Positions 1 through 64,000 are shown, counted from the stretch's first letter. The stretch is 64,000 nucleotides of DNA from Lewinellaceae bacterium (GCA_020636435.1 JACJXX010000002.1:2722921-2786920), one strand, 5' to 3'. The notes: generated by a model from the letters alone, not told the origin. A program made the numbers and translations.

Positions 1-266
1 AAGAAGAATTTAAGGGCAATGGCTGTATAATGTTGAGAGAAGACGCCAGCCTTCAATCCCGGATTGCTTCCCTGCATTATGAATGCTATAAGAAAATAGA
101 AGAGGTGGAACGGGAAATAGAAAGCCGCAGTGAAGAAATCCAATGCATCGTCGCCCGCGAGGGCCTGCTCCGTCATCCTGCTTTTCCTTTTGGCCAAGCA
201 CAACAACCTGAACTATGGGATTATGCCGATGGAGTGGATACCCTGGCTTTTCTCCTGAATCTTTAA
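1..266 (+). CDS. C-terminal end of a hypothetical protein entering from upstream (partial)
   Basis: Frame 3 is open from the window edge to TAA at 264-266 (EEFKGNGCIMLREDASLQSRIASL...). No recognisable motif. Confidence 0.3.
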   Translation, partial: EEFKGNGCIMLREDASLQSRIASLHYECYKKIEEVEREIESRSEEIQCIVAREGLLRHPAFPFGQAQQPELWDYADGVDTLAFLLNL

Positions 267-285
267 TTGCACACAATCCCGGAAT

Positions 286-1353
286 ATGAAATTTTTATAC
301 TTACCTCTGATCCTATTGACTGTCCTCCAGCCAGGGTTTGGGCAAAACGACTACCGGGTCATTGGCGCGGCTCATGAGATCGAGGCATCGATCAGCAGCG
401 ACTATTACATTCAGGCCATTGAAGACCAGCGTGCCTTTCAGGCTAACCTGGGAATTGTCAACCGGGGATTGTGGAATGACCTCAAACGGCAGTTGATCCT
501 GGAAACCGGTTTCTGGGACAGCCTGCTGAAGCAAATGAATGCCTGGCTTTTGCCGCAGGAAAATGCCGAACCGATAGTGGTTAAGGTTCAGGAACTTTAC
601 CTTTGGGAAAACCGGGGAATGAAGGCGGAGCAGGGGTTCATCCGCCTGAAACTTTCTTTTGCTCCTGCCGGCAAAGAGGTGGAAACGGTAGTTGCGGTTG
701 AACTTTCGGGTAAGGAAACGACGGTGCTCGACGGCCATGCCAAACGCCTGGAAGCCGCTTTCTTTCGGTGTTTGCAGCAGTATGATGAGAAACGAAAAAA
801 TGACGGAGAGGGGATAGCCTCTGTTTTTTCGGCTCAGGACGGCGCCGGGAGAGCCGATATCCTGGCGGCCCGCAACTTTTTGAATCTCTGGAAAGGGGAA
901 CTTTTCCCTGCTTCCGGTTCCCTGCGAAATAAAGGCGTGCTATTCCGGTATCAGTTGTATCGCAGGGGCGCGCCGGCGGAGCAACCTTATTATGCTTTGC
1001 TGAGAAAGAATAAGCTGTACCTGTGGGCCGGCAATTACACCGGAGCAGGCGAATATTACACCCAGGTTCTGGAACAGGGCCGCTACCTGTTCCTGATCGA
1101 CGAATTATTTATAAAACAGGGGTCAGAACTGGCGGCAAAGTTAGGCGAGGCTACAAGCAGGGTAGGCATTCTCATCGATATGGAAACGGGCGCGCCTCAA
1201 ATCGTGGACGATGAATTGATGGAAAAGCTGATGAAGCCCTACCCGGCGTTGTCGGAAAAATACCTGTTCAAAGACATTCTGAAATTTCCTTTTCAACTCA
1301 CCAGAGTGCAGAACGTAATCGCGGAAATCAACCAGATGGAGCCGAAAAATTAA
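286..1353 (+). CDS. hypothetical secreted protein
   Basis: 355-aa ORF with N-terminal signal peptide MKFLYLPLILLTVLQPGFG. Amino-acid composition is typical of real coding sequence. No catalytic motif recognised. Confidence 0.7.
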   Translation: MKFLYLPLILLTVLQPGFGQNDYRVIGAAHEIEASISSDYYIQAIEDQRAFQANLGIVNRGLWNDLKRQLILETGFWDSLLKQMNAWLLPQENAEPIVVKVQELYLWENRGMKAEQGFIRLKLSFAPAGKEVETVVAVELSGKETTVLDGHAKRLEAAFFRCLQQYDEKRKNDGEGIASVFSAQDGAGRADILAARNFLNLWKGELFPASGSLRNKGVLFRYQLYRRGAPAEQPYYALLRKNKLYLWAGNYTGAGEYYTQVLEQGRYLFLIDELFIKQGSELAAKLGEATSRVGILIDMETGAPQIVDDELMEKLMKPYPALSEKYLFKDILKFPFQLTRVQNVIAEINQMEPKN

Positions 1354-1355
1354 TG

Positions 1356-1392
1356 ACAGGGGTGGCGCCACTTCCAATGACGCCACCCCTGT
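1356..1392. terminator. perfect 12-bp-stem hairpin between convergent genes
   Basis: ACAGGGGTGGCG (1356-1367) pairs with CGCCACCCCTGT (1381-1392) around a 13-nt loop. It lies between the stop codons at 1353 and 1412. Confidence 0.5.
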
Positions 1393-1411
1393 TGCTTAAT
1401 GAGCAAAGCTC

Positions 1412-6067: not shown

Positions 6068-6115
6068 GTGCGGATGTACGAATACACGAATTCACGGATA
6101 CATGGATGTACGGAT
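6068..6115. repeat. octamer word array, 6 units (GTRCGRAT-like)
   Basis: Reads gtgcggat gtacgaat acacgaat tcacggat acatggat gtacggat, with strict 8-nt period. It abuts the left end of the A1 core. Confidence 0.85.
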
Positions 6116-6330
6116 GAGGGTGCTCCGGAAACTATTGATGGCGAAGAATATTTTGTCCACCCCCTAAATCCTCCCGAAACTCGTTCGGGACAGGCTCCGC
6201 CAGCGGGGGACATTTCCTCCGATTCAGGGGTGTGTTTTCCCCCGCTGGCGGGGGGCAGGGGGTGGAGTCCAAATAAAATTTCCCATTATTGGGCACAGGA
6301 GTTCCAAACTAGACTTTCCGGAGTAGCCTC
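6116..6330. mobile_element. family A palindromic MITE-like core, copy A1 (215 bp)
   Basis: Identical to 18076-18266 apart from 3 substitutions and one 24-nt indel. TIRs are GAGGGTGCTCCGGAAA and GAGGCTACTCCGGAAA (reverse complement). It has an internal 14-bp hairpin CCGCCAGCGGGGGA/TCCCCCGCTGGCGG. Flanking direct repeats are ACGGAT and ACGGGT. Confidence 0.8.
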
Positions 6331-6444
6331 ACGGGTACAGGGGTACACGGGTGCACGGGTGCACGGGTGCACGGGTGCACGGGTACACGGGTACACGGGT
6401 GCACGGGTGCACGGGTACACGGGTACAGGGGTGCACGGGTGCAC
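6330..6444. repeat. octamer tandem array (CACGGGTR) x14
   Basis: 115 bp of strict 8-nt period with two CAGGGGTR variants. It ends one base before the complement of the ZIP gene stop codon at 6445-6447. Confidence 0.95.
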
Positions 6445-7213: not shown

Positions 7214-7314
7214 CTAGTCCAAGCGGCACGAATTAACGGGGCAGTTAAGAGCCCTGGAAACCTGGCTATATGGGCTACCGAAACTGCCCGGTTATTTCGT
7301 TCTAGTCGCACTAG
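7214..7314. mobile_element. family H palindromic element, copy H1 (101 bp)
   Basis: Bounded by CTAG at each end. The last 78 nt match the reverse complement of 34510-34587 with 1 mismatch. Confidence 0.75.
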
Positions 7315-7393
7315 CTCCTTTCCCGGTTTCGGCAAGGCCTGGGCCCGCCGCTTCGTGCGATCTTTTACTATGGCAGGCAAATGGCACTGGAAA

Positions 7394-8818: not shown

Positions 8819-9018
8819 CCTCGGGAGAAGGGCTTTGCAAAATAGCCCGGCCCCGCTTGTTGGGCTGCCCCATTTCCAGGGGCGGCAAGCCCAAACAAAT
8901 TTCTTATTTTTGCAGGGAGGAGTGGGGCCGGTTTTAGAATGCCATAACAGGCCGCAAGCTTTCACAAAACCAACTTTTAAAAAAAAACTTAACTGTTCAG
9001 CATGAGGCATGAAATACA

Positions 9019-9108
9019 CCTGGCGCAAAATTTTGTAGGCTTTTCTGCTGGAACCCCTTCTCGTTCCCCTCGGGAGGGGAAGGATGGCTTACAAAATTTT
9101 GCGCCAGG
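9019..9108. repeat. singleton palindromic element G
   Basis: CCTGGCGCAAAATTTTGTAGGC (9019-9040) pairs with GCTTACAAAATTTTGCGCCAGG (9087-9108), 21/22 complementary. An inner hairpin TTCCCCT/AGGGGAA is present. It lies upstream of glmM. Confidence 0.7.
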
Positions 9109-9151
9109 CGTCATACAATCATGACTGAATAGTCGCAAAAAAACCGAAAAT

Positions 9152-10640: not shown

Positions 10641-12143
10641 ATGCCCACCCTAACCAAAAACAAAACCACCCAGTTAGAACAATACTTCGCCCCCTTCCGG
10701 GAGAAGGTCATCGGCTACAACCAGCATTTTGAAACCCCTTATGGCACCCGGCGGATCATCTATGCCGACTGGACGGCCAGCGGGCGGCTCTACCAGCCGA
10801 TCGAAGAGCTGCTGTACAAAGGCATAGCGCCTTTCGTGGGCAACACCCATACAGAGACTACCGTGACCGGGTCTTGTATGACGATGGCCTACCATCAGGC
10901 CAAGGACATCATCAAGGCCCATGTCGGCGCCTACCCGAAAGACGTGCTGATCTCTTCCAATTCGGGGATGACGGGAGTGGTCAACAAATTCCAGCGCATC
11001 CTGGGGCTGAAAGTGCACGAACGCTACACCAGCCAGGTGCAGTTGCCTAAGGAGGAACGCGCGGTGGTCTTCGTCTCCCACATGGAGCACCATTCCAACC
11101 AGACTTCCTGGCTGGAAACCCTGGCCGACGTAGAAGTCATAGAACCTAACGAAGAAGGCCTGGTCGACTTGGCTTCCCTGGAAGCCTTACTGGAAAAATA
11201 CAGCGACCGGAAGACGAAAATTGCCGCCGTCACCTCCTGCTCCAACGTGACCGGCATCAAAACGCCATACTACCAGATTGCCGAGCTGATGCACCGCAAC
11301 GGAGGGTTGTGCTTCGTCGACTTTGCCTGCTCGGCGCCTTATATCGACATCGAAATGCGGCCGGAAAACAAGCTCCAGCACCTGGACGCCATCTATTTCT
11401 CTCCCCATAAGTTCCTGGGCGGCCCCGGCTCGACCGGCATCCTGGTCTTCGACCCGAAGCTGTACACCAACCGCGTGCCCGACAACCCCGGCGGCGGAAC
11501 GGTCGACTGGACCAACCCCTGGGGCGGCCATAAGTACATCGAGGAGATCGAGGCACGAGAGGATGGCGGGACGCCCGCCTTCCTGCAGACCATTCGCGTG
11601 GCGCTCTGCGTTCTGCTAAAAGAGAAGATGGGCGTGGAGAACATCCTGAAGCGGGAAGAAGAAATGCTGGAACGCATCTGGCGCCGCCTGGATCAGTTGC
11701 CCAACCTCCACATCCTGGCCGATAATGTACGCGAACGCCTGGGCGTGGTGTCGTTCTACATCGACGGCCTGCATTACAACCTGGGGGTGAAATTGCTCAA
11801 CGACCGCTTCGGCGTGCAGGTGCGGGGCGGTTGCTCCTGCGCGGGCACCTACGGGCATTACCTGCTGCACGTTTCTCAGCAGTACTCCCGGTCCATTACC
11901 GAAAAGATCAACCACGGCGACCTGTCCGAGAAGCCGGGCTGGATTCGCATGTCTATCCATCCCATTATGACTGATGAAGAGCTGGATCACATCCTGGATG
12001 CGATCGAGGCGGTTTATCGCCACCATGAAGAATGGGGCAAGGACTATAACTATATTTCCCACACCAACGAGTATACCTGCAAAGACGACCCCGGCTATGA
12101 AACCCAACTGGTGGCCGGCTGGTTTAGTAAGGAGTTATTGTGA
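10641..12143 (+). CDS. class V aminotransferase-fold PLP enzyme (cysteine desulfurase/selenocysteine lyase-like)
   Basis: 500 aa. The PLP-lysine motif is FSPHKFLGGPGSTGILVF. Confidence 0.85.
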   Translation: MPTLTKNKTTQLEQYFAPFREKVIGYNQHFETPYGTRRIIYADWTASGRLYQPIEELLYKGIAPFVGNTHTETTVTGSCMTMAYHQAKDIIKAHVGAYPKDVLISSNSGMTGVVNKFQRILGLKVHERYTSQVQLPKEERAVVFVSHMEHHSNQTSWLETLADVEVIEPNEEGLVDLASLEALLEKYSDRKTKIAAVTSCSNVTGIKTPYYQIAELMHRNGGLCFVDFACSAPYIDIEMRPENKLQHLDAIYFSPHKFLGGPGSTGILVFDPKLYTNRVPDNPGGGTVDWTNPWGGHKYIEEIEAREDGGTPAFLQTIRVALCVLLKEKMGVENILKREEEMLERIWRRLDQLPNLHILADNVRERLGVVSFYIDGLHYNLGVKLLNDRFGVQVRGGCSCAGTYGHYLLHVSQQYSRSITEKINHGDLSEKPGWIRMSIHPIMTDEELDHILDAIEAVYRHHEEWGKDYNYISHTNEYTCKDDPGYETQLVAGWFSKELL

Positions 12144-12286
12144 GGCGACGCCTTCCCGCCGGGTACTGCCGGGGCAAAAGGTGTCGCCTCCCGCCCCTTA
12201 GGCAGCAAAGGATTAGTGTCGAGGTGGCATCCCGTTAGAGGGTCAGTTGTAGTTTTATTAACAGAAAGGATAAAAGAAAAGGATAA

Positions 12287-12820
12287 ATGAAAAATCTTAA
12301 CACCTTCCTCCGCATCGTCCTCTCCCTGGCCTTTCTCGGCCTGGTAGGGTGGGGCATATACTGGAGCGTCCGCTCCATCAGCCGCATGTACCAGCAGTTT
12401 ACCCCCATGTGGGCTGCCGGGATGACCCTCGGCTCGCTGGTGCTCATCCTGTGCACCCTCATCCTGGCCTACGCCATCAACCGGGCTGCGGGTAAGAGGA
12501 GCAAGCCCATCCCTGCCGAAAAGGCGCGTGCCTATCAGCTATTTGTCGAAATGTGGCTGTCGAGAAACAGGAAGCCGTCGCGGGAAAAGCAGCACAAGCT
12601 GGCGCAAATGCTGGCCCTGTGGGCTGACGATGGTGTCATTGAGGCGTACATGTTATTTCAGGAGCTGGCCAGCGACCCGGAAAGCAGCTGGGACGATATA
12701 CATGACATGGCCGGGGAAGTGGTGCTGGCTATGCGGACGGACCTCGGGTTTTCAACCATCACCATTACCTCGGATGATTTGACGGAAATGCAGGCCAGTA
12801 GATCGTTGCCCGAGGACTAA
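12287..12820 (+). CDS. hypothetical membrane protein (two N-terminal TM helices)
   Basis: 177-aa ORF with hydrophobic segments LRIVLSLAFLGLVGWGIYW and AAGMTLGSLVLILCTLILAYAI. No motif recognised. Confidence 0.6.
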   Translation: MKNLNTFLRIVLSLAFLGLVGWGIYWSVRSISRMYQQFTPMWAAGMTLGSLVLILCTLILAYAINRAAGKRSKPIPAEKARAYQLFVEMWLSRNRKPSREKQHKLAQMLALWADDGVIEAYMLFQELASDPESSWDDIHDMAGEVVLAMRTDLGFSTITITSDDLTEMQASRSLPED

Positions 12821-12829
12821 ACCTAATAA

Positions 12830-12984
12830 GTGATGAGAAATAAATAACATAAGCCAATATGCTTCATCTTTTTCCGCCATACTTCGTTACTTCCTCGTTG
12901 CGTCCGTACGGATGCGCCTCGGAAAAGCCTCGTCTGGCGAAAAAATATTTTGCCTATTGGCTCACCTTATTTATGTCTCATCAC
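12830..12984. mobile_element. family C MITE-like element, copy C1 (155 bp)
   Basis: TIRs are GTGATGAGAAATAAATAACATAAGCCAATA and its imperfect complement ending ...TTATTTATGTCTCATCAC. It is flanked by TAA at 12827-12829 and 12985-12987. Its centre shares ATCCGTACGGATGCGCCTC with C2. Confidence 0.8.
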
Positions 12985-12997
12985 TAATGAACAAACC

Positions 12998-14140: not shown

Positions 14141-14147
14141 AAAAGAC

Positions 14148-14234
14148 GGAACGCGGATGACGCGGATCTGGCGGATTTTCGCGGATAGCTCACGCGTCGC
14201 TTCCATATCTGCGTGTATTCGCAAAATTCGCGTT
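14148..14234. repeat. CGCGGAT-word palindrome K1 between convergent genes
   Basis: The left arm is GGAACGCGGATGACGCGGATCTGGCGGATTTTCGCGGAT. The right arm is ATATCTGCGTGTATTCGCAAAATTCGCGTT. The same module recurs at 15604-15642 (reverse complement) and twice in 32128-32271. Confidence 0.7.
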
Positions 14235-14991: not shown

Positions 14992-15179
14992 TTCTACTTT
15001 GTTACTTTAACACTGAGACCGCAGATTGTAGGCTGCTCAACTGCTGACCAGCAGTTGAGCAGCCTCTCTGCGTCCACGAATTTGAACCGCAGAGAGCGCT
15101 GGGATACGCAGAGAAAGTGCCGCCCCCCTGCGTCTCTCCGCGTCCCCTGCGGTTAATTTTTTAAAGTAACAAAGTAGTA
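14992..15179. mobile_element. family B element, copy B1
   Basis: Shell TIRs are CTACTTTGTTACTTTAA (14994-15010) and TTAAAGTAACAAAGTAG (15161-15177). CTAA direct repeats lie at 14988-14991 and 15180-15183. The interior carries a perfect 17-bp hairpin, AGGCTGCTCAACTGCTG (15030-15046) with CAGCAGTTGAGCAGCCT (15049-15065). Confidence 0.8.
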
Positions 15180-16512: not shown

Positions 16513-16667
16513 GGGATGAAAAATAAATAACTGACGCCAATTGCCGTTATCTTTTTCCGTTGGGCGGCGTTATTTTTTCGTTACATCCGTACGGATGCGC
16601 CTCAAAAATGCCTTGCCCAGCGAAAAAATATTTAGGCACTTGGCCCAACTTATTTAATTTTCATCCC
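16513..16667. mobile_element. family C MITE-like element, copy C2 (155 bp)
   Basis: TIRs are GGGATGAAAAATAAATAAC and CTTATTTAATTTTCATCCC (17/19). TTTA direct repeats lie at 16509-16512 and 16668-16671. It ends 39 nt upstream of gatC. Confidence 0.8.
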
Positions 16668-17816: not shown

Positions 17817-17975
17817 GGCACGAGGAAAGAATAAAGTGTTCAATTATGGGGCAGTAATTTTTGTGCCAGGCAAGGCGCGAAGAATGAAGATAGCCAAAGC
17901 TACCTGAGTGATGAGCAACGCAGCATGGCGCAAAAAGGACAAGCCAGAATGGACAGTTTATTCTTTCGTCGTGCC
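17817..17975. mobile_element. family I MITE-like element (159 bp)
   Basis: TIRs are GGCACGAGGAAAGAATAAAGTG and CAGTTTATTCTTTCGTCGTGCC (20/22). TTA direct repeats lie at 17814-17816 and 17976-17978. Confidence 0.75.
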
Positions 17976-17986
17976 TTAATAGCATA

Positions 17987-18317
17987 CATACTACTGGACA
18001 TTTTAGGGGCTACCGTGTAAATGTGTGAAAGTGTAAACGTGTAAATGCTTGGGAATCCCGTTCTTTTACACATTTGAGGGTGCTCCGGAAACTATTGATG
18101 GCGAAGAATATTTTGTCCACCCCCTAAATCCCCCGCCAGCGGGGGACATTTCCTCCGATTCAGGGGTGTGTTTTCCCCCGCTGGCGGGGGTCAGGGGGTG
18201 GAGTCCAAATAAAATTTCCCATTATTGGGCACCGGAGTTCCAAGCTAGACTTTCCGGAGTAGCCTCACATTTACGCTCTTACACATTTACACGATCCGGC
18301 AAATGTCCAGTAGTATG
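17987..18317. mobile_element. composite MITE J (331 bp) carrying palindromic octamer arms and a nested A core
   Basis: The 17-bp TIR is perfect: CATACTACTGGACATTT (17987-18003) with AAATGTCCAGTAGTATG (18301-18317). The 9-bp TSD AATAGCATA is perfect, at 17978-17986 and 18318-18326. Confidence 0.9.
18076..18266. mobile_element. family A core, copy A2 (191 bp), nested in J
   Basis: Same sequence as 6116-6330 minus a 24-nt hairpin insert. It is flanked by a perfect 6-bp direct repeat ACATTT (18070-18075 and 18267-18272) within the GTGTAAAT/ACATTTAC octamer arms. Confidence 0.85.
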
Positions 18318-21375: not shown

Positions 21376-21492
21376 GGCTACCCGTCTAGCGTTGGACAAT
21401 AGCTGCCGGGGTTGTGTACGGTGTACGGGTCCAAAGTGGCTGTGTACGGTGTACGAAGCACCACCTGGCTGTCCAACATTAGAACGGTAGCC
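21376..21492. mobile_element. family D MITE, copy D1 (117 bp)
   Basis: TIRs are GGCTACCCGTCTAGCGTTGGACAA and CTGTCCAACATTAGAACGGTAGCC. The 8-bp TSD TATTTTTT is perfect, at 21368-21375 and 21493-21500. The interior carries GTGTACGG octamers. Confidence 0.9.
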
Positions 21493-22373: not shown

Positions 22374-22415
22374 AAATACTTCAGGTTTTAGTTAGTTTGG
22401 CCTTCTGAATGGACT

Positions 22416-22506
22416 TGAAGCCGGAAGTGCGAAGTCGGAAGTCGGAAATAGCCAACGAATGGGCGTTCAGAGCCTGTTTTTCCGCCTTCCGAATTCCGCC
22501 TTCCGC
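22416..22506. repeat. heptamer word-array palindrome M
   Basis: The left arm is gaagccg gaagtgc gaagtcg gaagtcg gaaatag (22416-22450). The right arm is ttccgcc ttccgaa ttccgcc ttccgcc (22479-22506). The arms are approximately complementary. Confidence 0.75.
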
Positions 22507-22676
22507 CTTTGACGCCAGACTGTCCAAGGTCTAGCCTATGAATGTCGCAAAAATAACTCAATTCCCAAAAGAGGCCGTAAGATAACCCCACAAATTCTGG
22601 AAAATGAAACCTACAGGGCAGCCAACGGAATAATATAACAAAAATAAACCGGATTTGGATTGGCCGCGTTCCATAA

Positions 22677-22837
22677 GAGCGTGTTGGGATTTTCATGCTG
22701 AAGTTGAAAATGAGCAAATTTTGCCTCAATCAAGGCCCGTACGGGCAGTCGGATGCGGGCAATCCGGCGAAAAATTTAACGCCGAGTGAGGGAAAATTTG
22801 CCATTTGCAGGCCAGCAATGGAATTCCCAACACGCTC
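22677..22837. mobile_element. family E MITE-like element, copy E1 (161 bp)
   Basis: TIRs are GAGCGTGTTGGGA and TCCCAACACGCTC. It is flanked by TAA at 22674-22676 and 22838-22840. Confidence 0.8.
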
Positions 22838-22883: not shown

Positions 22884-23045
22884 GAGCATGTTTGGAGGTG
22901 GTGCTTTGGAAGCGAAAATGGCAGATTTTGGGTTCTGATGAAGCTCATTTTCGAGCGCATAGCAGCGCTACGGGCGAGAAAATAGCTGAAATCAGGTTCC
23001 AAAAGTGGCCATTTGCAGCCCAAATGACTACCTCCAAACATGCTC
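22884..23045. mobile_element. family E MITE-like element, copy E2 (162 bp)
   Basis: TIRs are GAGCATGTTTGGAGG and CCTCCAAACATGCTC. It is flanked by TAA at 22881-22883 and 23046-23048. Internal blocks shared with E1 include GAAAATG.GCA.ATTTTG and GCCATTTGCAG. Confidence 0.8.
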
Positions 23046-23048: not shown

Positions 23049-23428
23049 AACTACTTTCTTACTTTAAAATTTAGCTGGCTTGGGAGCGCGGGCCTCCAGG
23101 CCCGCCAGGGCAATTGCATTTGAATAAAACTGACCTCGAAGAGGTCATATATCTATAGAAAAGGAATGTTTGCCCCTTCGACCTCAAAGAGGTCGTACAA
23201 ATGGACATAAGTACGACCTCTTTGAGGTCGAAAATTCTCATAATCGGTGAATTTCTATAGATATTTGACCCGCTTTGGGGTCAATAACATTTAAATGCGA
23301 TTGCCCTGCCAGGCCCGCGAAGGCTGCCTCAGGCAGCCCTTAAAAGGCAGTTGTTTACTAAAAACCTGCTTCAAGCAGGTTTTCGCGGGCCTGGAGGCCC
23401 GCGCTCCTTTTAAAGTAACAAAGTAGTA
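23049..23428. mobile_element. family B element, copy B2 (380 bp), containing nested element Q
   Basis: Shell TIRs are CTACTTTCTTACTTTAA (23051-23067) and TTAAAGTAACAAAGTAG (23410-23426). The second layer is GGAGCGCGGGCCTCCAGGCCCGC with GCGGGCCTGGAGGCCCGCGCTCC. Outside Q, the interior is collinear with B3. Confidence 0.85.
23106..23308. mobile_element. element Q (203 bp) inserted inside B2
   Basis: TIRs are CAGGGCAATTGCATTTGAAT and ATTTAAATGCGATTGCCCTG (18/20). The 10-bp TSD CCAGGCCCGC is perfect, at 23096-23105 and 23309-23318; B3 has a single copy of this site. Inner layers are a 13-bp perfect palindrome ATATCTATAGAAA/TTTCTATAGATAT and a 22-bp perfect hairpin (23177-23198 with 23211-23232). 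Confidence 0.9.
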
Positions 23429-28000: not shown

Positions 28001-28101
28001 GGCTACCCTTCTAAGGTTGGACAGCCACAGGCTCGGTCTTGGCTGGCATCGTACATCGTACACAGTCCATGCAATTTTTGTCCAACGTTAGACGAGTAGC
28101 C
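28001..28101. mobile_element. family D MITE, copy D2 (101 bp)
   Basis: TIRs are GGCTACCCTTCTAAGGTTGGACAG and TTGTCCAACGTTAGACGAGTAGCC. The 8-bp TSD TATCTGGC is perfect, at 27993-28000 and 28102-28109. Confidence 0.9.
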
Positions 28102-30975: not shown

Positions 30976-32107
30976 GCTGAATGCGATCGAAGAGGCCATA
31001 GCCGACATCAAGGCCGGCAAAGTGATCATTGTAGTCGATGACGAGGATCGGGAAAACGAGGGCGATTTTATCTGTGCGGCGGAGTGCGTAACCCCGGAGA
31101 TCATCAACTTCATGGCCACCCATGGCCGGGGCCTCATCTGCGCTCCTATCGACGAGAAACGGGCCGACCAGCTGGAGCTCGAAATGATGGTCTCTTCCAA
31201 TACCGCCCTGCACGAGACGGCCTTTACCGTTTCGATCGACCTGATCGGCCAGGGGTGCACCACCGGCATTTCGGCCTACGACCGGGCCACCGGCATCCGG
31301 GCATTGGTCGACCCCAAAACCAAGCCGTCCGATTATGCCCGTCCCGGGCATATTTTCCCGCTGCGGGCCAAGACGGGCGGCGTGCTGCGGCGCACCGGCC
31401 ATACCGAGGCGGCCATCGACCTGGCTCGCCTGGCCGGCTACGCTCCCGCCGGCGTTCTGGTGGAAATCCTAAACGAAGACGGCACCATGGCCCGCCTGCC
31501 GCAACTGATGGAGATCGCCGAACGGTTCGGCCTCAAGATCATCGCCATCAAAGACCTGGTGGCCTACCGCATGCGCACCGAGCGCATCGTCAAGCGGGAA
31601 GTGTCGGTCCACCTGGAGACGAAGTACGGCAATTTTGAGGTCATCGCCTTCCGGCAGATCACCACCAACGACATCCACCTGGCCATCAAGTGCGGAGACT
31701 GGCAGCCGGAAGAGCCGGTGCTCGTCCGCGTGCATTCCTCCACCGAAACCGGAGATATCCTGGGCGCCCTCTTCGATGATTATGGCGTGCAACTGCAACG
31801 CTCCATCGAGATGATATCGGCAGAAGGCCAGGGCCTGCTGCTCTACATGCGGCACGGCGAAAAAGCAGATACCATCCTGCACCGCCTGGAGTCTTACCGC
31901 CAGAAGGAGGAAAAGGGGGAGAATGTCGCCCTGGAGAAAAAAGGGGAGATGACCCAGCGGGATTTTGGGGTAGGCGCTCAAATCCTGCGGGAACTCGACA
32001 TCTGCAAGATACGGCAGATTACCAACAACCCGAAACGCCGTATCGGGCTGATCGGGTATGGGCTGGAGATTGTGGAGAATGTGCCCCTCGTGTTGCGATC
32101 ATCCTGA
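30932..32107 (+). CDS. ribB: 3,4-dihydroxy-2-butanone-4-phosphate synthase fused to a degenerate GTP-cyclohydrolase-II-like domain
   Basis: The N-terminal half has VVDDEDRENEGDFICAAE. The C-terminal half aligns to RibA but reads RVHSSTETGD...FDDYG where RVHSECLTGD...RCDCG is expected. The last 7 codons and the TGA stop lie in repeat DNA. Confidence 0.85.
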   Translation: MSGNQLKEAIQPSLKLNAIEEAIADIKAGKVIIVVDDEDRENEGDFICAAECVTPEIINFMATHGRGLICAPIDEKRADQLELEMMVSSNTALHETAFTVSIDLIGQGCTTGISAYDRATGIRALVDPKTKPSDYARPGHIFPLRAKTGGVLRRTGHTEAAIDLARLAGYAPAGVLVEILNEDGTMARLPQLMEIAERFGLKIIAIKDLVAYRMRTERIVKREVSVHLETKYGNFEVIAFRQITTNDIHLAIKCGDWQPEEPVLVRVHSSTETGDILGALFDDYGVQLQRSIEMISAEGQGLLLYMRHGEKADTILHRLESYRQKEEKGENVALEKKGEMTQRDFGVGAQILRELDICKIRQITNNPKRRIGLIGYGLEIVENVPLVLRSS

Positions 32108-32320
32108 TCGCCCGGCATGTCGGAGGGAATGGAACGCGGATGAACGCGGATGCGGCGGGTTGTCGCGGGTTTGGAGGTGCTCCTGCTCTCGTGCTGCGAT
32201 CATCCTGATCGCCCGGCATGTCGGAAGGAAGGGAACGCGGATGAACGCGGATGCGGGGGATTGTCGCGGGTTTGGAGGTGCTCCTGCTCTCGTGCTGCGG
32301 CCATTCTGGCTGCCCGGCAT
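32095..32320. repeat. 101-bp tandem repeat, about 2.2 copies
   Basis: Unit 1 (32095-32195) and unit 2 (32196-32296) match at 97/101 positions. A partial third unit runs to about 32320. Each unit starts with the hairpin GCGATCA-TCC-TGATCGC and contains a CGCGGAT-word module. Confidence 0.9.
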
Positions 32321-34277: not shown

Positions 34278-34509
34278 AGTTTTGAGATTGTTATGAAAAG
34301 GAGATATTGCATGTTTTCAATATAGCCCAGGCTTTCCAGCCGAGAAGCCCATCGCTGCAAATGCGAGAACCGGCTTTTTATGAGAGCGTACAAATACTGA
34401 AAAGGCGAACAACAGAGGCAAGGAACCTGTTCACGCCAACATCGAAACACGATGGCAGAAGTTGCAGAAAAGACAACTACTTTGCAAAATGGAGATTTAA
34501 CCGACCTGG

Positions 34510-34610
34510 CTAGTGCGACTATAACGAAATAACCGGGCAGTTTCGGTAGCCCATATAGCCAGGTTTCCAGGGCTCTTAACTGCCCCGCTATTTAGTGCGC
34601 GAGGCACTAG
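34510..34610. mobile_element. family H palindromic element, copy H2 (101 bp, inverted relative to H1)
   Basis: Bounded by CTAG. The right-hand CTAG (34607-34610) contains the TAG stop codon of the PorP/SprF gene. Confidence 0.75.
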
Positions 34611-35641
34611 AACTTCGGGCACAACACCACCTCATCCTCATACTCGCCCAAATAAGCGATAGAAATCTCAATAGCCCCGCTGCGCTGCCGCTGCGTACCC
34701 AGGGCGCTCGCCCGGGCGTCGTAACTAACACCCAGGAGGAAGCTGTTGTATTCGATGCCCACCATGGCGACGATGGCGTCGAGAGAGAAGCTGTCGTCGG
34801 CATTTCTTACCGGGCGCAGCCAGCCGCCGACGTGCAGAGCGGTGCCATTGATGTCGTCGATCAGGAAGCGGATGTTGCTGCCGGCATTGAGCGCCAGGTG
34901 CGGGCCCTGGTTGTACACCAGGGCGCGGGGATGGAACTGGATGGACTCTCCAACGGGAATTCTCAGGTTGAGGTAGGCGGAGTATTTCCGCAGCAGGGTG
35001 TTGCTCTCCGCCCGGTCGGGATCCTGGTCGCTGGCGAAAAAGCTCACTTCGGGTTCGAGGATGTGGTGCATGGCCGCTCCGGCAAACAGGCCGATGGAGC
35101 GCTCGGGAGCGTAGGAGTAGTTGAGGCCTACTGCAAAATCGGCGACGGCGAAGTTGTTTTCGGGAAAAATCTCCGCTGTGGGGTTGTCATAACCCGAGGA
35201 ACCGGAAAACTGGTCTTCGAAGAAGAGATTGCCATAGCTGAAGTTGCGCTGGGAAATGCCCGCCTGGGCGCCGATGCTCAGAAACTCGTTGTTGCGCGGG
35301 CTGAGGGATTTGTGGAAACCGCCGGAGATGTTGATCTGGTTGTTGGAGTAGCCCACTTCGGGCACTTTGTCGTTGTAAAAAACGACGCCCACGCCAAAGG
35401 CGTCCTTGTACCGTTTGCCCACATTCCGGAAGTTAAACCGCAGATCGATGGCGCCGGCGAAAGTCTTGTACGGCTCCTGGTCGCGGTAGATCAGGGCGAC
35501 GCGGTACTTGCCGTCGAAGGTGCCGGTGAGCGCCGGGTTGAGCGTCAGAGGGGAGGCGAAGAATTGGGTGAAGTGCTGGTCCTGAGCCTTCCCCGTGGCG
35601 GCGATGGCCAGGACAAAAATAATCGGTAATAATTTCCTCAT
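34607..35641 (-). CDS. type IX secretion system membrane protein, PorP/SprF family
   Basis: 344 aa. The signal peptide is followed by QDQHFTQFFASPLTLNPALTG, the hallmark PorP/SprF N-terminal motif. The remainder is beta-barrel-like. Confidence 0.9.
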   Translation of the reverse strand: MRKLLPIIFVLAIAATGKAQDQHFTQFFASPLTLNPALTGTFDGKYRVALIYRDQEPYKTFAGAIDLRFNFRNVGKRYKDAFGVGVVFYNDKVPEVGYSNNQINISGGFHKSLSPRNNEFLSIGAQAGISQRNFSYGNLFFEDQFSGSSGYDNPTAEIFPENNFAVADFAVGLNYSYAPERSIGLFAGAAMHHILEPEVSFFASDQDPDRAESNTLLRKYSAYLNLRIPVGESIQFHPRALVYNQGPHLALNAGSNIRFLIDDINGTALHVGGWLRPVRNADDSFSLDAIVAMVGIEYNSFLLGVSYDARASALGTQRQRSGAIEISIAYLGEYEDEVVLCPKF

Positions 35642-44948: not shown

Positions 44949-45124
44949 TTCTACTTTGTTAACTTAACAGGAGCGCGGACCTCCAGGTCCGCGAAGGCTG
45001 CCTTTGGCAGCCCTTTAAAAGGCAATATCGTACTAAAAACCTGCTTCAAGCAGGTTTACGCGGACCTGGAGGTCCGCGCTCCAGGCTCTCCGGCCATGCG
45101 GAATTTTAAGTTGACAAAGTAGAA
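44949..45124. mobile_element. family B element, copy B3 (176 bp)
   Basis: TIRs are TTCTACTTTGTTAACTTAA and TTAAGTTGACAAAGTAGAA. The 4-bp TSD ATAG is perfect, at 44945-44948 and 45125-45128. The interior is collinear with B2 minus element Q. Confidence 0.85.
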
Positions 45125-47525: not shown

Positions 47526-47533
47526 GGGGGGGG

Positions 47534-47589
47534 CAGTGTATCAGTGTATCAGTGTTGCAGTGTATCAGTGTATCAGTGTTGCAATGTTC
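47534..47589. repeat. octamer word array (CAGTGTWK) x7
   Basis: Reads cagtgtat cagtgtat cagtgttg cagtgtat cagtgtat cagtgttg caatgttc, which is also a 24-nt higher-order repeat x2. It lies between the dehydrogenase stop and the decarboxylase start. Confidence 0.9.
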
Positions 47590-47619: not shown

Positions 47620-48756
47620 ATGATCGACTATAAAAAGATACCATCCCCGGCATTTGTGCTGGACGAGAAGCTGCTGCGGCAGAACCTGGAGCTGATCCGG
47701 GGCGTGCAGGAGCGCGCCGGGGTGTCCATCATTCTGGCGCTGAAGGGGTTTTCCATGTGGAAGGTGTTTCCCATGGTAGCCGAATACCTGAAGGGGGCGA
47801 CAGCCAGCTCGTTGCATGAAGCGCGGCTGATCTACGAGGAGATGGGCGTACGGGCCCATACGTATTCCCCCGCCTATATTCCGGAGGAGTTTGAAGAGAT
47901 CAAACGCTACAGCAGCCACCTTACGTTCAACTCCCTGAACCAGTATCACTTGTATAAGGAGAAGTTGGCAGGCGCCTCCCACCAGATTTCCCCTGGCCTG
48001 CGGGTCAACCCCGAGTATTCGGAAGTAGAGGTAGACTTGTACAACCCCGCTGCTAAAGGCTCCCGCCTGGGCGAAGCGCCGGACAATTTCGGCGATTCGC
48101 TGCCGGCAGGCATCGAGGGGCTGCACTTCCACACCCTCTGCGAATCCTCCTCCTACGACCTGGAGAAGGTGCTGGCGGCTTTCGAAAAGCACTACAGCCG
48201 TTTCTTCCCGCAACTCAAGTGGGTAAACTTCGGCGGAGGCCACCTGATGACCCGCCAGGGGTACGACATCGATCACCTCGTCGGGCTTTTGAAGGCCTTC
48301 CGGGAGAAGCATGGCCTGGAAGTCATCCTGGAGCCAGGCAGCGCCATCGCCTGGGAAACCGGAGACCTGGTTTCCACAGTGCTGGATATTACTAACAACC
48401 GGGGCGTTAAAACCGCCATCGTCGACGTATCCTTCACCGCTCACATGCCGGACACACTAGAGATGCCCTACCGCCCCCGCATTGCAGGCGCTACTGACGT
48501 CCAGCCCGGCAAGCCTGCCTACCGCATCGGCGGCGTCAGTTGCCTGGCCGGCGATTATATGGAGGCTTATTCCTTCGAAAAGGAACTGCAAATAGGCCAT
48601 CAGGTTATTTTTAAAGACATGATCCATTATACCATGGTGAAAACGAGCACCTTCAATGGCGTCAGGCATCCCAGTATCTGTATCTGGCATGAGGACGGCA
48701 CCTTAGAAGTAGTGCGGGCGTTCGGTTACGAGGATTTTAAAGGGCGCTTGTCCTAG
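47620..48756 (+). CDS. nspC: carboxynorspermidine/carboxyspermidine decarboxylase
   Basis: ATG at 47620 (MIDYKKIPSPAFVLDEKLLRQNLELI); a GTG at 47605 is possible. It has a PLP-dependent decarboxylase fold-III-like pattern. Confidence 0.85.
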   Translation: MIDYKKIPSPAFVLDEKLLRQNLELIRGVQERAGVSIILALKGFSMWKVFPMVAEYLKGATASSLHEARLIYEEMGVRAHTYSPAYIPEEFEEIKRYSSHLTFNSLNQYHLYKEKLAGASHQISPGLRVNPEYSEVEVDLYNPAAKGSRLGEAPDNFGDSLPAGIEGLHFHTLCESSSYDLEKVLAAFEKHYSRFFPQLKWVNFGGGHLMTRQGYDIDHLVGLLKAFREKHGLEVILEPGSAIAWETGDLVSTVLDITNNRGVKTAIVDVSFTAHMPDTLEMPYRPRIAGATDVQPGKPAYRIGGVSCLAGDYMEAYSFEKELQIGHQVIFKDMIHYTMVKTSTFNGVRHPSICIWHEDGTLEVVRAFGYEDFKGRLS

Positions 48757-48947
48757 CCTCGTGTCGCGATCATCCTTGCCTCCGCAGGCAGAAGCCTGCC
48801 AGTGCAGGCGAAGGCCTGATCGCAAGATCGCAAGACAGTACGCGAAGTTACTTCGTTGCCGGGCTCTTTGTTGACAGTTGTTCGTTGTTTGTTGCCCGAG
48901 CGGTTGGGGTTGTCGAACCAACAACCAACAACAACCAACAAACAACC
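48757..48947. repeat. composite palindromic word region P
   Basis: It starts with CCTCGTGTCGCGATCATCCT, the same word as the ribB 3' end at 32086. It then has GATCGCAA x2, followed by a GTTGTT-word arm (48867-48894) facing a CAACAA-word arm (48916-48947). Confidence 0.7.
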
Positions 48948-49831: not shown

Positions 49832-50011
49832 TTTGCGATGTGCTGGAGGTGGCCCGCCTGGAAGTTCCCTGCCGGAAGGCCAAAAATCAAACGGGATGGG
49901 TATAAAAAGAGCGCTCTAAGGCGAAGCCTTCCCGGAAGGCCCAACCTGGGAAAAAGGTGTCGCCTTCATCTCAGGCTACTCTGGTTTTCCGTTTCCGGAC
50001 TGCCCGTCCCG

Positions 50012-50689: not shown

Positions 50690-50753
50690 GAAGAGGGTTT
50701 TGATAATTTGAAGCCTTTGAGGTTTAGAACGTATTTGTTTAGTACTTCAGTTT

Positions 50754-50927
50754 GATGCTCACTGCTTTCGGCTTTGCCGAAGGCAGTGATGCTACGCCCT
50801 AAGGGCGGTTGATGCTATTGATGCTCAAACGGGGCTATCCACGACGGCGGATAAACATCAACCGGCCCGAAGGGACTTGGTATCCTTTTGAGCTTTCATA
50901 GCTCAAAAGCAGAGCATCAATAGCATC
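50754..50927. repeat. GATGCT-punctuated hairpin cluster O
   Basis: GATGCT occurs four times on the plus strand, and twice more as AGCATC in the distal arm. It separates the hairpins CACTGCTTTCGG/CCGAAGGCAGTG and CGCCC/GGGCG. An outer 16-bp perfect inverted repeat joins GATGCTATTGATGCTC (50811-50826) and GAGCATCAATAGCATC (50912-50927). Confidence 0.75.
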
Positions 50928-50932
50928 GGGCA

Positions 50933-51742
50933 TCATTTATTAAAAATGATGCCCGCAGCGGGCGTAAAGCCCAGCACCTGGTGATAGCTGGATGCAATAT
51001 CAAGGCGCAGCCCGTTGGGCAGGGCGTACCCCAGGCCAAAGCTCATGGAGGTAGGCTGGGTAGCTGCGCCCAGCCGCAGGAAAAGCGGTTCGGCGATCTG
51101 GTACTCCACGCCGAATTTGGCACGGGCGGCATAGTCGATGTCCTTTTCCAGTTCGGCCAGCAGGGTCAGTTTATCGGAAGGCAGGTAGCTCAGCCCCAGC
51201 TTTAAGACGGTGGGCAGGTTGTCTTCGTTCGTCACCTGTATCCGGGCGGGGCTGAACAGGTGGAAACCCAGGTTCAACTGCGGCAAGAGTTCCGCCAGGG
51301 CACCCACTTCGAAAGTGAAAACGGCTTTGTTTCCATACTCCGGAATACGCGTATTCAGCATCAGGAACTGTGCGCCGATGGATAATTTTTCCAGTAGCTT
51401 GCGCCCGTAAGCCAGGCCGATCCGCTGTTCGTTGTATTGGTCGAAACCAAAGTAATGCAGGGTCAGCCCGAAGGTTCCCGAAGCCGTGGGCAGGGCGGCG
51501 CCCAATCCGATGGACCGGATTTCGCTTACCAGGAACCGCTGTTCGCCGTAGGCCGTTATCGCCATGCTTTCCAGGTGCGCCAGACCGGCCTGGTTGGCAA
51601 AAATGCTGTTGATGTCGGTGAAGGTGGCGCCAGTTTGCCCCATGGCCACGGCCCGGGCGCCGGCTGCCGGCGGAGCGCCGTTTTGGGCATTTAGGCAATG
51701 GAAGCCGGATAGAAAGAGCAGGATGTAGAAGTATTTCATCAT
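50933..51742 (-). CDS. PorV/PorQ-family outer-membrane beta-barrel
   Basis: ATG at 51742 (MMKYFYILLFLSGFHCLNAQ). It has the motif GARAVAMGQTGATFTDINSIFANQAGLA, typical of the PorV/PorQ family, and C-terminal aromatic barrel strands. Confidence 0.7.
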   Translation of the reverse strand: MMKYFYILLFLSGFHCLNAQNGAPPAAGARAVAMGQTGATFTDINSIFANQAGLAHLESMAITAYGEQRFLVSEIRSIGLGAALPTASGTFGLTLHYFGFDQYNEQRIGLAYGRKLLEKLSIGAQFLMLNTRIPEYGNKAVFTFEVGALAELLPQLNLGFHLFSPARIQVTNEDNLPTVLKLGLSYLPSDKLTLLAELEKDIDYAARAKFGVEYQIAEPLFLRLGAATQPTSMSFGLGYALPNGLRLDIASSYHQVLGFTPAAGIIFNK

Positions 51743-62093: not shown

Positions 62094-63479
62094 ATGCAAC
62101 AAGTACAGGATTACATTCAGCAGAACAAGGAGCGTTATCTGGAAGAACTCTTTGGCCTGCTGCGCATCCCTTCCATTAGCGCCGACTCCGATTATAAAGA
62201 AGACGTCGTCAAAGCCGCCGAATTTGTGGCCGAAAGCCTGCGGCAGGCCGGCGCCGACAAAGTGGAAATCTGCACCACCCCCGGCAACCCCATTGTCTAC
62301 GGCGAAAAGATCATCGGCCCCGATAAACCGACGGTGCTGGTCTACGGCCACTACGACGTGCAGCCGCCCGACCCGCTGGAGCTTTGGGAGTCCGGGCCCT
62401 TCGAGCCGGTCATCAAAAAGACGGAAGAGCATCCCGCCGGCGCCATTTACGCCCGCGGCTCCTGCGACGATAAGGGGCAATTCTTCATGCACATCAAAGC
62501 CTTCGAGGCCATGAACGCCAAAGGAGCCCTGACCTGCAACATGAAGTTCATGATCGAAGGCGAAGAGGAGGTAGGGTCCAGCCACCTGGGCACGTTCTGC
62601 CGGGAGAACGCCGGCAAACTAGCCTGCGACACCATCCTCATCTCCGATACTTCCATCATTGCCAACGACGTGCCGTCGATCACCGTCGGGCTGCGCGGGC
62701 TGAGTTACGTCGAGGTGGAAGTCACCGGCCCCAACCGCGACCTGCACTCCGGGGTGTACGGCGGCGCGGTGGCCAACCCCATTAACGTGCTCTGCGACAT
62801 GATCGCCTCCCTGCAGGATGAGAACCGCCGCATTACCATACCTGGCTTTTATGATGATGTGGTAGCGCTGAGCGCCGCCGAACGGGCTAAGATGAATGAA
62901 GCCCCGTTCGACCTGGAGCATTATAAAAAAGACCTGGCTATTGGCGACATACAGGGCGAAACCGGGTTCACTACCCTGGAACGGGTCTCCATCCGCCCGA
63001 CGCTGGACGTCAACGGCATCTGGGGGGGCTACATCGGCAAAGGGGCCAAGACCGTGCTGCCTTCCAAGGCTTCCGCCAAGATCAGCATGCGCCTGGTACC
63101 CAACCAGGATCCGGACAAGATCACCGAGCTCTTCACCCGGCATTTCGAAAGCATCGCCCCCCCCTCGGTTAAAGTTAAGGTGATACCCCATCACGGCGGC
63201 CAGCCGGCGGTGACGCCGACAGATACCCCGGAATATAAGGCGGCCTCGAAGGCTATGGAAAAGGCCTTTGGAAAAACGCCGATCCCCGCGCGCGAAGGCG
63301 GCAGCATTCCCATTGTAGCCCTGTTCGAGGAAGTGCTCGGCGCCAAGAGCATCCTTATGGGCTTCGGGCTGGACTCCGACGCCATCCACTCGCCAAACGA
63401 GCACTACGGGCTGTTTAATTTTTACAAAGGGATAGAAACGATTCCGTACTTTTATGATTATTATGCGAAAATGAAGTAA
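62094..63479 (+). CDS. M20-family dipeptidase
   Basis: 461 aa, with VLVYGHYDVQP, GSCDDKGQ and MIEGEEEVGS metal/catalytic motifs. Confidence 0.85.
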   Translation: MQQVQDYIQQNKERYLEELFGLLRIPSISADSDYKEDVVKAAEFVAESLRQAGADKVEICTTPGNPIVYGEKIIGPDKPTVLVYGHYDVQPPDPLELWESGPFEPVIKKTEEHPAGAIYARGSCDDKGQFFMHIKAFEAMNAKGALTCNMKFMIEGEEEVGSSHLGTFCRENAGKLACDTILISDTSIIANDVPSITVGLRGLSYVEVEVTGPNRDLHSGVYGGAVANPINVLCDMIASLQDENRRITIPGFYDDVVALSAAERAKMNEAPFDLEHYKKDLAIGDIQGETGFTTLERVSIRPTLDVNGIWGGYIGKGAKTVLPSKASAKISMRLVPNQDPDKITELFTRHFESIAPPSVKVKVIPHHGGQPAVTPTDTPEYKAASKAMEKAFGKTPIPAREGGSIPIVALFEEVLGAKSILMGFGLDSDAIHSPNEHYGLFNFYKGIETIPYFYDYYAKMK

Positions 63480-63630
63480 GGGGTGAGGAAATAAATAAGC
63501 TACTCAAAATGACGAAGGTATTTTTTCTTCGCGCATTTGACGCGCATAGTGGGGCTACGTAAGGAAAATGCAACGAAGCATAAAGGAAAAAGACCAAGTC
63601 AGATGGGTAGGTTATTTGTTACGTCACCCC
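63480..63630. mobile_element. family C MITE-like element, copy C3 (151 bp)
   Basis: TIRs are GGGGTGAGGAAATAAATAAG... and ...GTTATTTGTTACGTCACCCC. It is flanked by TAA at 63477-63479 (the dipeptidase stop codon) and 63631-63633. Confidence 0.7.
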
Positions 63631-63650
63631 TAAACAATTTTTAGGCAAAA

Positions 63651-63674
63651 AAACCGGCCACAACCGGCCGGTTT
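63651..63674. terminator. bidirectional intrinsic-terminator-like hairpin
   Basis: AAACCGGCC (63651-63659) pairs with GGCCGGTTT (63666-63674). On the minus strand the GC stem is followed by a 7-nt T run. Confidence 0.55.
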
Positions 63675-63827
63675 CCAAAAGAGCTTTGAGAGGCTATCTA
63701 CATGCCAAAATTGAGGGCGTCCTTTGATACCCCCGAAATCTTTCATAGGAATTTAATTGCATTCGCGGGATTTGCACCTGCGATTGCCCCACCTTTCCTG
63801 TAAATCCCGTTTATCCCGTCATCCTGT

Positions 63828-64000
63828 CTACTGTTTCACCATAACCGCTACCTCGATATCCTCTCCATCACTGATTACAATCGAATAAAAACCGGCCGGC
63901 AGGCCTTTGAATTCCAGTACCACTTCATCCCCTTCCATCCGGCGACGGAACGGAACCGGTTCGCCGAGCAGGGTGAAAACGCCGATTTGCAGCTTTTCGG
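63828..64000 (-). CDS. C-terminal T9SS sorting domain of a cargo protein continuing beyond the window (partial)
   Basis: The minus-strand frame is open to the window edge and ends ...EKLQIGVFTLLGEPVPFRRRMEGDEVVLEFKGLPAGFYSIVISDGEDIEVAVMVKQ, with the stop at 63828-63830. Confidence 0.6.
   Translation of the reverse strand, partial: EKLQIGVFTLLGEPVPFRRRMEGDEVVLEFKGLPAGFYSIVISDGEDIEVAVMVKQ

Follow-up and report, generated by a model that had tools for sequence, protein, structure and literature searches.

A 64,000-nt stretch of the genome of a Lewinellaceae bacterium (GCA_020636435.1, JACJXX010000002.1:2722921-2786920; hereafter the window, with positions counted from its first nucleotide) carries numerous short palindromic elements between its genes. 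[quoted passage not shown] MITEs are short, non-coding derivatives of insertion sequences (ISs). Terminal inverted repeats (TIRs) together with flanking target-site duplications were identified for at least 17 elements, with duplication classes of 3 (TAA/TTA), 4, 6, 8, 9, and 10 bp.

Terminal inverted repeats and target-site duplications

Exact coordinates were verified for the 3-, 4-, 8-, 9-, and 10-bp repeats, and the 6-bp pair TGAATG was also located. Twelve of 35 TIR-defined elements are bordered by an adjacent direct repeat of at least 3 bp, compared with 10% of displaced controls, and three of 35 by one of at least 8 bp, compared with less than 1%. The TIR arms measure 17-54 nt in families A, C, F, G, and S and in the elements E17816, E22676, E22884, E23106, and E63480. 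Elements range in size from 101 to 380 nt, and no open reading frame (ORF) with a family match lies inside them. Each family has two to four copies in the window, plus copies in related genomes and metagenomes.

The length of the duplication is constant within a family. It is TAA/TTA in six of six window copies of the F and E228 types, extending to TTTA in F16513, and its distance from a G...C terminus does not vary among the six. In family C, the duplication is 4 bp long, perfect in two copies and matching at three of four positions in the third. The members of the TAA/TTA class are:

12830..12984: F12830, 155-nt long-TIR MITE; TAA duplication
16513..16667: F16513, 155-nt long-TIR MITE; TTTA/TTTA duplication
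17817..17975: E17816, 159-nt MITE with F-type TIR GGCACGAGGAAAGAATAAAG; TTA duplication
22677..22837: E22676, 161-nt MITE with TIR GAGCGTGTTGGG; TAA duplication
22884..23045: E22884, 162-nt MITE with TIR GAGCATGTTTGG; TAA duplication; interrupts the ancestral sequence GGGCGATACCCTAAATATATC
63480..63630: E63480, 151-nt MITE with F-type TIR GGGGTGAGGAAATAAATAAG; TAA duplication

The TIR form GGNRTGARRAAATAAATAA is common to F12830, F16513, E17816, and E63480, which have unrelated interiors and the same type of duplication, and GAGCRTGTTKGG is common to the ends of E22676 and E22884. Copies related to E22884 with TAA/TTA flanks are also present in the loci L141 and L176, and an unrelated marine contig contains an E228-type copy with a TTA duplication.

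This 3-bp class, with its three TIR types, resembles the IS5/PIF-Harbinger style. "Tourist-like" MITEs of these families share with it both the 3-bp TAA/TTA duplications and ends of the form G-N-GC-N-TGTTTGG, and the 4-bp targets CTAA, CTAG, and ATAG found elsewhere in the window resemble the YTAR target of IS5. The tentative assignment is made from duplication length, target, and this resemblance of the ends; a matching transposase was not found.

A first-pass annotation of the window had listed duplications of 10, 9, 8, 6, and 3-4 bp, and all of these classes were recovered. It had also proposed that more than one mobilising enzyme, encoded outside the window, is responsible. The six duplication lengths and several TIR families agree with this proposal, and a scan of the approximately 58 ORFs of the window detected no transposase, integrase, or Y1 domain.

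Empty sites and lineage-specific expansion

We compared the window with three relatives of ∼80% nucleotide identity in genes (L135, L137, and L139) and a closer one (L141), in all of which gene order is retained between the ZIP transporter and the VTC gene. The comparison concerns F16513, E22884, and the following features:

22412..22538: array-armed hairpin, GAAGTCG... / ...TTCCGCC; TGAATG (6 bp) on both sides
23049..23428: C23046, C outer TIRs around a REP-like doublet and a further insertion; flanks CTAA/ATAA
23106..23308: E23106, 203 nt, TIR CAGGGCAATYGCATTT; perfect 10-bp duplication CCAGGCCCGC; located in a REP hairpin
44949..45124: C44946, compact 176-nt C element; ATAG/ATAG duplication; REP-like doublet at 44970-44993 and 45059-45082

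In the spacer between dNK and gatC, the window reads CCTTTG-TTTA-[155-nt F16513]-TTTA-CCGATTAAAAC, and L139 reads CCTTTGTTTGGCGATTAAAAC; the site is also empty in L135 and L137. E22676, E22884, and C23046 adjoin in a row, with one TAA in common to the latter two. Both E22884 and C23046 lie within the conserved block GGGCGATACCCTAAATATATC, which the relatives keep intact as GGGCGATACCCTAAATATATCTTAG. The site of the array-armed hairpin is empty in four relatives, and a homologous copy is found elsewhere in L105. For E23106, the empty site is provided by the window itself: C44946 contains the hairpin in uninterrupted form. The converse case also occurs, as L141 harbors an E228-type MITE beside an array where the window is empty. 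These cases answer the call of the first-pass annotation for a recovery of pre-insertion sites.

Within a syntenic block of 21 genes, spacers add up to 5,431 nt (21.5%) in the window and contain 28 inverted repeats, compared with 1.8-2.5 kb (8.6-12%) and 0-5 inverted repeats in the three more distant relatives. This excess indicates that the expansion is lineage-specific.

At window 12144-12989, a 177-aa ORF without family match lies between a SufS-like and a NifS gene, together with a hairpin and F12830. The gap between the two genes is only 14-50 nt in L135 and L137.

Family G has an autonomous partner in other organisms

Two copies of family G are present in the window:

21376..21492: G1, 117-nt MITE with 23-bp TIR GGCTACCCGTCTAGCGTTGGACA; 8-bp duplication TATTTTTT
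28001..28101: G2, 101-nt copy; 8-bp duplication TATCTGGC

The G2 stretch is covered at 99.98% identity by a contig from another sample (L004). A third copy, in another Lewinellaceae genome, carries its own 8-bp duplication AACAACCT, so that the length is 8 bp in three of three Lewinellaceae copies. The TIR occurs in at least 120 metagenome stretches, and among the matches listed, 13 of 18 paired copies show perfect 8-bp duplications.

Larger, autonomous forms also occur. One of them, 1,693 bp long, is located in L264 (1447-3139); it has the 23-bp ends of G, is flanked by an 8-bp duplication, and encodes a 180-aa helix-turn-helix (HTH)-like ORF and a 345-aa ORF. In a 1,666-bp version (L195, 257-1922), the second ORF matches the Pfam family DUF6399 (E = 2.7e-44). 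L161 and L204 contain 264-bp internal-deletion derivatives. A DUF6399 IS in the genome studied here, if present, would be expected to have GGCTACCC... ends. An autonomous IS with matching TIRs, which the first-pass annotation had suggested searching for, was thus obtained for G, in other organisms only.

DUF6399-type homologues number more than 1,000, mostly on contigs of 1.6-2.1 kb. The named ones, including those on plasmids and in Saprospiraceae and Bacteroidota metagenome-assembled genomes (MAGs), are described only as "DUF6399 domain-containing protein". A related element in a Saprospiraceae MAG has similar, not identical, ends, and no matching ends were found for the homologue on a Crinalium plasmid. 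The partner protein had no match in NCBIfam and only DUF6399 and a weak HTH in Pfam. Its AlphaFold model is poor outside a helical middle (pLDDT 67.7), and a Foldseek search against the PDB returned nothing below E = 1. Our literature search found no paper mentioning DUF6399. Because the protein is positioned between TIRs and duplications, we infer that it acts as a transposase, and DUF6399 proteins are probably transposases missed by current annotation.

An orphan ORF (28101-28454, minus strand) adjoins G2 on the right; the relatives lack it in this spacer. By eye, its sequence resembles a C-terminal sorting domain of the type IX secretion system (T9SS) alone, pointing to a gene remnant.

Spacer content and integrity of the assembly

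Repeat finders returned 94 inverted pairs and 24 tandem rows in the window, overwhelmingly in spacers and at the positions of the palindromes and arrays noted in the first pass. On a gene map corrected by synteny, at least one palindromic element or short-period word array occurs in 24 of the 31 spacers longer than 80 nt. The 38 elements and arrays comprise 4,376 nt, corresponding to 47% of the spacer DNA and 6.8% of the window. The earlier statement that such elements occupy most spacers is therefore correct, whereas "saturated" is a somewhat strong word for them. Fold-energy z-scores of 50 spacer tiles relative to dinucleotide shuffles had a median of -1.81, with 44% below -2, compared with 8% below -2 for length-matched coding controls (Mann-Whitney p = 5.8e-7).

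A G+C content of 51-57% was determined for the window. In agreement with the first-pass description, family scans of the ORFs revealed ordinary housekeeping genes, along with envelope genes bearing hallmarks of Bacteroidota (T9SS sorting tails, a SusC-like receptor, and PorP/SprF). Among named relatives, those that match the PgpH-like gene best come from MAGs labelled Phaeodactylibacter sp. and Lewinellaceae bacterium (86-90% amino-acid identity). No tRNAs were found in the window. Rfam gave zero matches at the gathering threshold and, at E ≤ 1, only two sub-threshold microRNA-hairpin look-alikes, which we attribute to chance. A plasmid search with the A copy A2 (see below) as query gave zero matches. 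We also considered a CRISPR array, defined by 25-40-nt repeats with unique spacers between them and cas genes nearby. It was rejected, since the arrays of the window are uninterrupted head-to-tail rows of 7-13-nt units and no cas domains were found in the window ORFs.

Long and sometimes perfect palindromes could in principle arise from long-read assembly, as fold-back chimeras or collapsed repeats, and short-read assemblies of the same organism do break at them. Short metagenome contigs (1.5-6 kb) match the window at 98.6-100%, and several terminate within repeats: at least five end at 44975-44978 in C44946, others at 23397, 10642, 9095, and 27529. However, short-read contigs from several other samples run at 99.9-100% identity across E9016 (a palindrome described below), G2, half of A2/S, several arrays, and the right arm of C23046. 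Since independent contigs reproduce several elements in this way, and the same families are present in other genomes, an artefactual origin is extremely improbable.

A 369-nt tandem duplication (33408-34121, 90% identical) was observed inside a gene with a T9SS sorting tail.

C elements contain a REP-like hairpin doublet

The family C elements C23046 and C44946 enclose a second type of hairpin. The further features are:

14992..15179: C14989, MITE with outer TIR TTCTACTTTGTTACTTTAA and its own inner palindromes; CTAA/CTAA duplication
23083..23407: REP-like hairpin pair in C23046, GGAGCGCGGGCCTCCAGGCCCGC; arms 23083-23105 and 23385-23407

We rejected the view that the C outer arms are promoters: the genes on either side of C44946 converge, and a duplication is present at every copy.

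The REP unit consists of GGAGC followed by CGCGGRCC-TCCA-GGYCCGCG, that is, a GGAG head and an 8-bp stem with a TCCA loop. Within the window, C elements are its sole location (two of ∼38 features), and these doublets lack a duplication of their own. The inner arms of C23046 and C44946 (GGAGCGCGGRCCTCCAGGYCCGC) match at least 120 stretches in species-representative genomes. The matches listed are mostly from Reyranella, Rhodospirillales, and Brevundimonas, with others from Planctomycetota, Acidobacteriota, Actinomycetota, Armatimonadetes, and three Saprospirales loci. A doublet that abounds in genomes of Alphaproteobacteria, Planctomycetota, and Acidobacteriota has exactly the 23-nt hairpin sequence found in the C elements. 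In other genomes, the unit is mostly arranged as an inverted doublet with a spacer of 6-57 nt, most often 13 nt, just after stop codons. Among the matches listed, 37 of 46 alphaproteobacterial doublets lack a duplication. REP doublets are often nested with sister hairpins, in which the TCCA/TCCG loop is kept and the stems show compensated changes. No gene was found recurrently beside the doublets among 120 loci.

A motif scan identified a Y1_Tnp ORF, of a family annotated as RayT, near such hairpins in one Reyranella MAG. In a second Reyranella genome, inverted copies of the hairpin GCGAGCC-TCCG-GCTCGC lie to either side of RayT (L265, 1945-1970 and 2545-2570); this hairpin is a sister of the REP-like unit of the window. 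The inverted doublets, the lack of duplications, and the sister hairpin flanking RayT lead us to regard the inner hairpin of the C elements as REP-like or, in the doublet form, REPIN-like (REP doublet forming hairpin). The match to a catalogued repeat class, which the first-pass annotation had named as a refutation of its view, applies to one inner family.

These findings bring up the alternative that the whole set is a system of the REP or bacterial interspersed mosaic element (BIME) type, in which a single-strand Y1 (RayT) transposase moves units without target duplication and mosaics accrete. The identical doublets of Reyranella, Brevundimonas, Planctomycetota, and others, their frequent lack of duplications, and the RayT gene between sister hairpins fit such a system, and Bacteroidetes-specific RayT subclasses have been described (PMC6006769). 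Y1 transposition, however, makes no duplications, and at least 17 other elements of the window carry duplications of 3-10 bp. The REP hairpin is found in no more than the two features named above, and a Y1/RayT ORF was found neither in the window nor in the Lewinellaceae loci examined. As an account of the whole set, this alternative is unlikely, and we prefer MITEs of several classes, with the REP doublet embedded in one of them. A cognate RayT, if present in this genome, would be expected between GGAGCGCGG hairpins.

Compared with described REP, REPIN, and BIME sequences that work with RayT, the unit found here shares the short GC-rich hairpin, the fixed 5′ head, and the inverted doublets, along with the absence of duplications in alphaproteobacterial copies and the sister hairpin beside RayT. 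It differs in several respects. The head is GGAG(C), whereas the described superfamily tags are GTAG or CGTC (PMC3733652). The doublet has a 65-nt structured spacer and is located inside a MITE that makes 4-bp duplications. Finally, the identical 23-mer is spread over several phyla, while descriptions of REPIN-RAYT systems have them inherited mostly vertically (PMC3116915, PMC3733652, PMC6006769). No paper containing the REP string was found in the literature.

A marine metagenome contig with a G-type end also encodes a Y1_Tnp (RayT-like) ORF (L172, 204-722, minus strand).

Nesting and families A, S, and H

According to the first-pass annotation, the elements are recursively nested. Besides C23046 with E23106, this concerns families A and S, listed here with the arrays around A1 and with family H:

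6071..6114: period-8 word array left of A1, CGGATGTA-type units
6115..6331: A1, 217-nt MITE with TIR TGAGGGTGCTCCGGAAA, within a period-8 word array; flanks CGGA/CGGG
6332..6444: period-8 word array right of A1, CACGGGTR, 14 units; direct-orientation relative of the left array
7214..7316: H1, ∼100-nt palindromic element; CTAG on both sides; mate H2
17987..18317: S, MITE whose arms include GTGTAAAN word arrays; perfect 9-bp duplication AATAGCATA; A2 nested inside
18075..18267: A2, 193-nt A copy inside S; CATT/CATT duplication
34509..34611: H2, inverted copy of H1, 96% identical

Independent duplications prove nesting for S containing A2 and for C23046 containing E23106, and removal of A2 restores a period-8 array. 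True nesting reaches two to three levels, the third if the REP doublet entered C separately. The deeper concentric shells, in contrast, recur in both A copies and are thus the internal palindromy of single elements; in the same way, the interior of E23106 includes palindromes at 23143-23270 and 23177-23232. The claim of recursion holds for the levels with independent duplications and not for the deeper shells. Nested cases number about three among roughly 19, with elements making up 30-47% of the spacer DNA. Nesting is therefore no commoner than expected from random insertion into element-rich spacers, and no dedicated recursive mechanism is needed.

A1 and A2 differ by four substitutions and one 24-nt indel, where three substitutions had been counted before; the indel had been described correctly. 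It corresponds to an additional 24-nt hairpin insert in A1 (∼6171-6194) that A2 lacks. Over 90 nt, H1 matches H2 at 96% of positions, with one mismatch in the last ∼80 nt, confirming the near-identity reported for them. L141 contains a partial S-like copy, at a site that is not orthologous.

Period-8 word arrays surround each of the two A copies (6071-6444 and 18009-18293), which hints at either a target preference or a common origin of arrays and insertions.

Word arrays and terminator-like hairpins

About half of the ∼38 features lack the hallmarks of transposons and are terminator-like hairpins, word arrays, and palindromes without duplications. The main ones are:

9016..9111: E9016, 96-nt palindrome with 19-25-nt arms; no duplication; present in contig L001
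10599..10639: word array, CAATCGAA, five units; immediately upstream of a start codon
12142..12190: terminator-like hairpin that closely follows a stop codon; mate at 49919-49965
14145..14186: CGCGGAT word array; inverted partner at 15604-15645; related arrays in the 101-nt tandem repeat at 32087-32320
32086..32320: 101-nt tandem repeat, 2.3 copies, with a GCGATCATCCTGATCGC hairpin as well as CGCGGAT arrays; related head at 48757
47533..47588: word array, CAGTGTAT, about six units; between two genes
50752..50955: hairpin cluster with GATGCT words; 16-nt perfect arms at 50811/50912; no duplication

Word arrays with units of 7-13 nt are frequent and often form both arms of one hairpin; they are also contained in the G and S elements. 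Relatives have array-armed hairpins made of different words at the same spacers (L137, 9290-9370; L139, 9240-9330 and 17700-17800; L141, 2415-2520), and L137 shows a long (TTCC)n run at such a site. The hairpin at 12142-12190, its mate at 49919, and those at 1356 and 63651 look like terminators. The 3′ arm of the first is kept after the orthologous gene in L135.

The 101-nt repeat begins inside ribBA, among its final codons, and provides the stop codon of this gene. Its 26-nt head recurs at 48751-48776, on the stop codon of a gene whose last position is 48756.

The position of many hairpins just after stop codons, the conservation of the hairpin in L135, the exchange of words in array-armed hairpins that follow stop codons in the relatives, and the compensatory changes that keep the REP stem paired would all be expected if the palindromes were functional structures, such as terminators, RNA stabilisers, or protein-binding sites, which evolve in place by slippage or template switching. 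Evolution in place cannot explain, however, why identical 23-bp ends are found with different 8-bp duplications at three unrelated sites, nor can it explain non-orthologous copies, empty sites, or an autonomous IS with the same ends. Applied to all elements, it is slightly less probable even than a general REP/BIME system. It is likely to be true for a minority, namely the terminator-like hairpins and possibly the arrays. For the latter, our guess is that they could derive from slippage or from filler synthesis during gap repair.

A model for the accumulation of MITEs in spacers

In the model that we favor, mobilization by transposases, enzymes encoded elsewhere in the genome would recognize the TIRs in trans and move the elements, which may still be active, and each insertion would duplicate a few target bases. 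At least five specificities would be involved: 3 bp at TAA/TTA (three TIR types), 4 bp (C, A, and perhaps H), 8 bp (G), 9 bp (S), and 10 bp (E23106). A REP-type doublet of the no-duplication, RayT-associated kind would be embedded in C elements. As genes are packed and insertions into them would be purged, new copies would survive only in spacers. With the spacers filling up, new copies would land in older ones, giving rise to nested and side-by-side palindromes, and the remaining palindromic signal would come from ordinary terminator-like hairpins and short-period word arrays.

Several observations weigh against this model. Duplications are missing in about half of the features (E9016, E21192, E16360, and the 50.7-kb cluster), and H is ambiguous. 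Copies with the same TIR differ wholly in their interior, which is unusual for simple copy amplification. Copies in the host were counted in a 64-kb window only. An autonomous partner is known only for G and only from other organisms, and no transposase fold was found for its protein. Moreover, very close strains show replacement of whole spacers and not clean presence or absence: in same-species strains with 98-100% identical flanking genes, entire spacers are swapped. In L143/L144, the replaced segment is bounded precisely by the stop codons of two convergent genes (window 21099-21560 vs. L143 2886-3026), and in L002 a different word-array hairpin takes the place of the E9016 spacer stretch (window 9016-9138 vs. 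L002 1-114). Exact empty sites were not found in the same-species strains L002 and L143/L144.

Comparison with known repeat systems

Bacterial MITEs such as the Correia elements of Neisseria, Nezha and other cyanobacterial elements, and BrickBuilt resemble the elements described here in being short, non-coding, and intergenic, in having TIRs, duplications, and several copies, and probably in depending on an IS transposase in trans. BrickBuilt of Porphyromonas gingivalis, also a member of the Bacteroidota, contains an internal minisatellite (PMC4596501), comparable to the word arrays in G and S. The present set differs in combining no fewer than eight TIR families with duplications of six lengths within 64 kb, and in the unrelated interiors of same-TIR copies. 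If the window is typical, its density extrapolates to ∼250-340 elements per Mb, with 4.3% of the DNA occupied, counted by methods that differ from those of a census of 183,232 genomes, in which Wolbachia had the maximum, at 123 MITEs per Mb covering 1.23% of the genome (PMC11602168).

Another parallel comes from heterocystous cyanobacteria, in which Elhai and colleagues and Mazel and colleagues reportedly described nested small dispersed repeats and heptameric short tandemly repeated repetitive (STRR) arrays. Tiny hairpin inserts in larger repeats (compare the 24-nt insert of A1), spacer arrays of 7-8-nt units, and nesting are common to both. The phylum and the sequences are different, and most nested units of the window carry a classical TIR and duplication. 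Our literature search turned up no description of such elements for Lewinellaceae or Phaeodactylibacter, and the first-pass annotation knew of none for the lineage. They are an unusually dense example, with multiple families, of a known kind of system, and are new for this lineage.

Implications

These results document a proliferation of MITEs in the Saprospirales/Lewinellaceae, bacteria abundant in activated sludge and on marine particles, for which apparently none had been described. The elements explain why short-read assemblies of the organism shatter at nearly every spacer. The turnover of spacers between strains with 98-100% identical flanking genes could rewire promoters and terminators quickly. 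More tentatively, the window may reflect a recent burst of several MITE families in a Phaeodactylibacter-like clade that would rank among the most MITE-dense bacteria, with the REP hairpin and a DUF6399-driven family G shared across phyla, in the case of G with low-GC marine bacteria, and with arrays that are perhaps filler left by abortive gap repair or slippage. The occurrence of one REP hairpin in several phyla bears on the horizontal movement of REP/RayT systems, as it is unexpected under mostly vertical inheritance. If true, the sharing of REP and G would imply traffic of small non-coding mobile DNA between phyla and a horizontal spread of this REP type.

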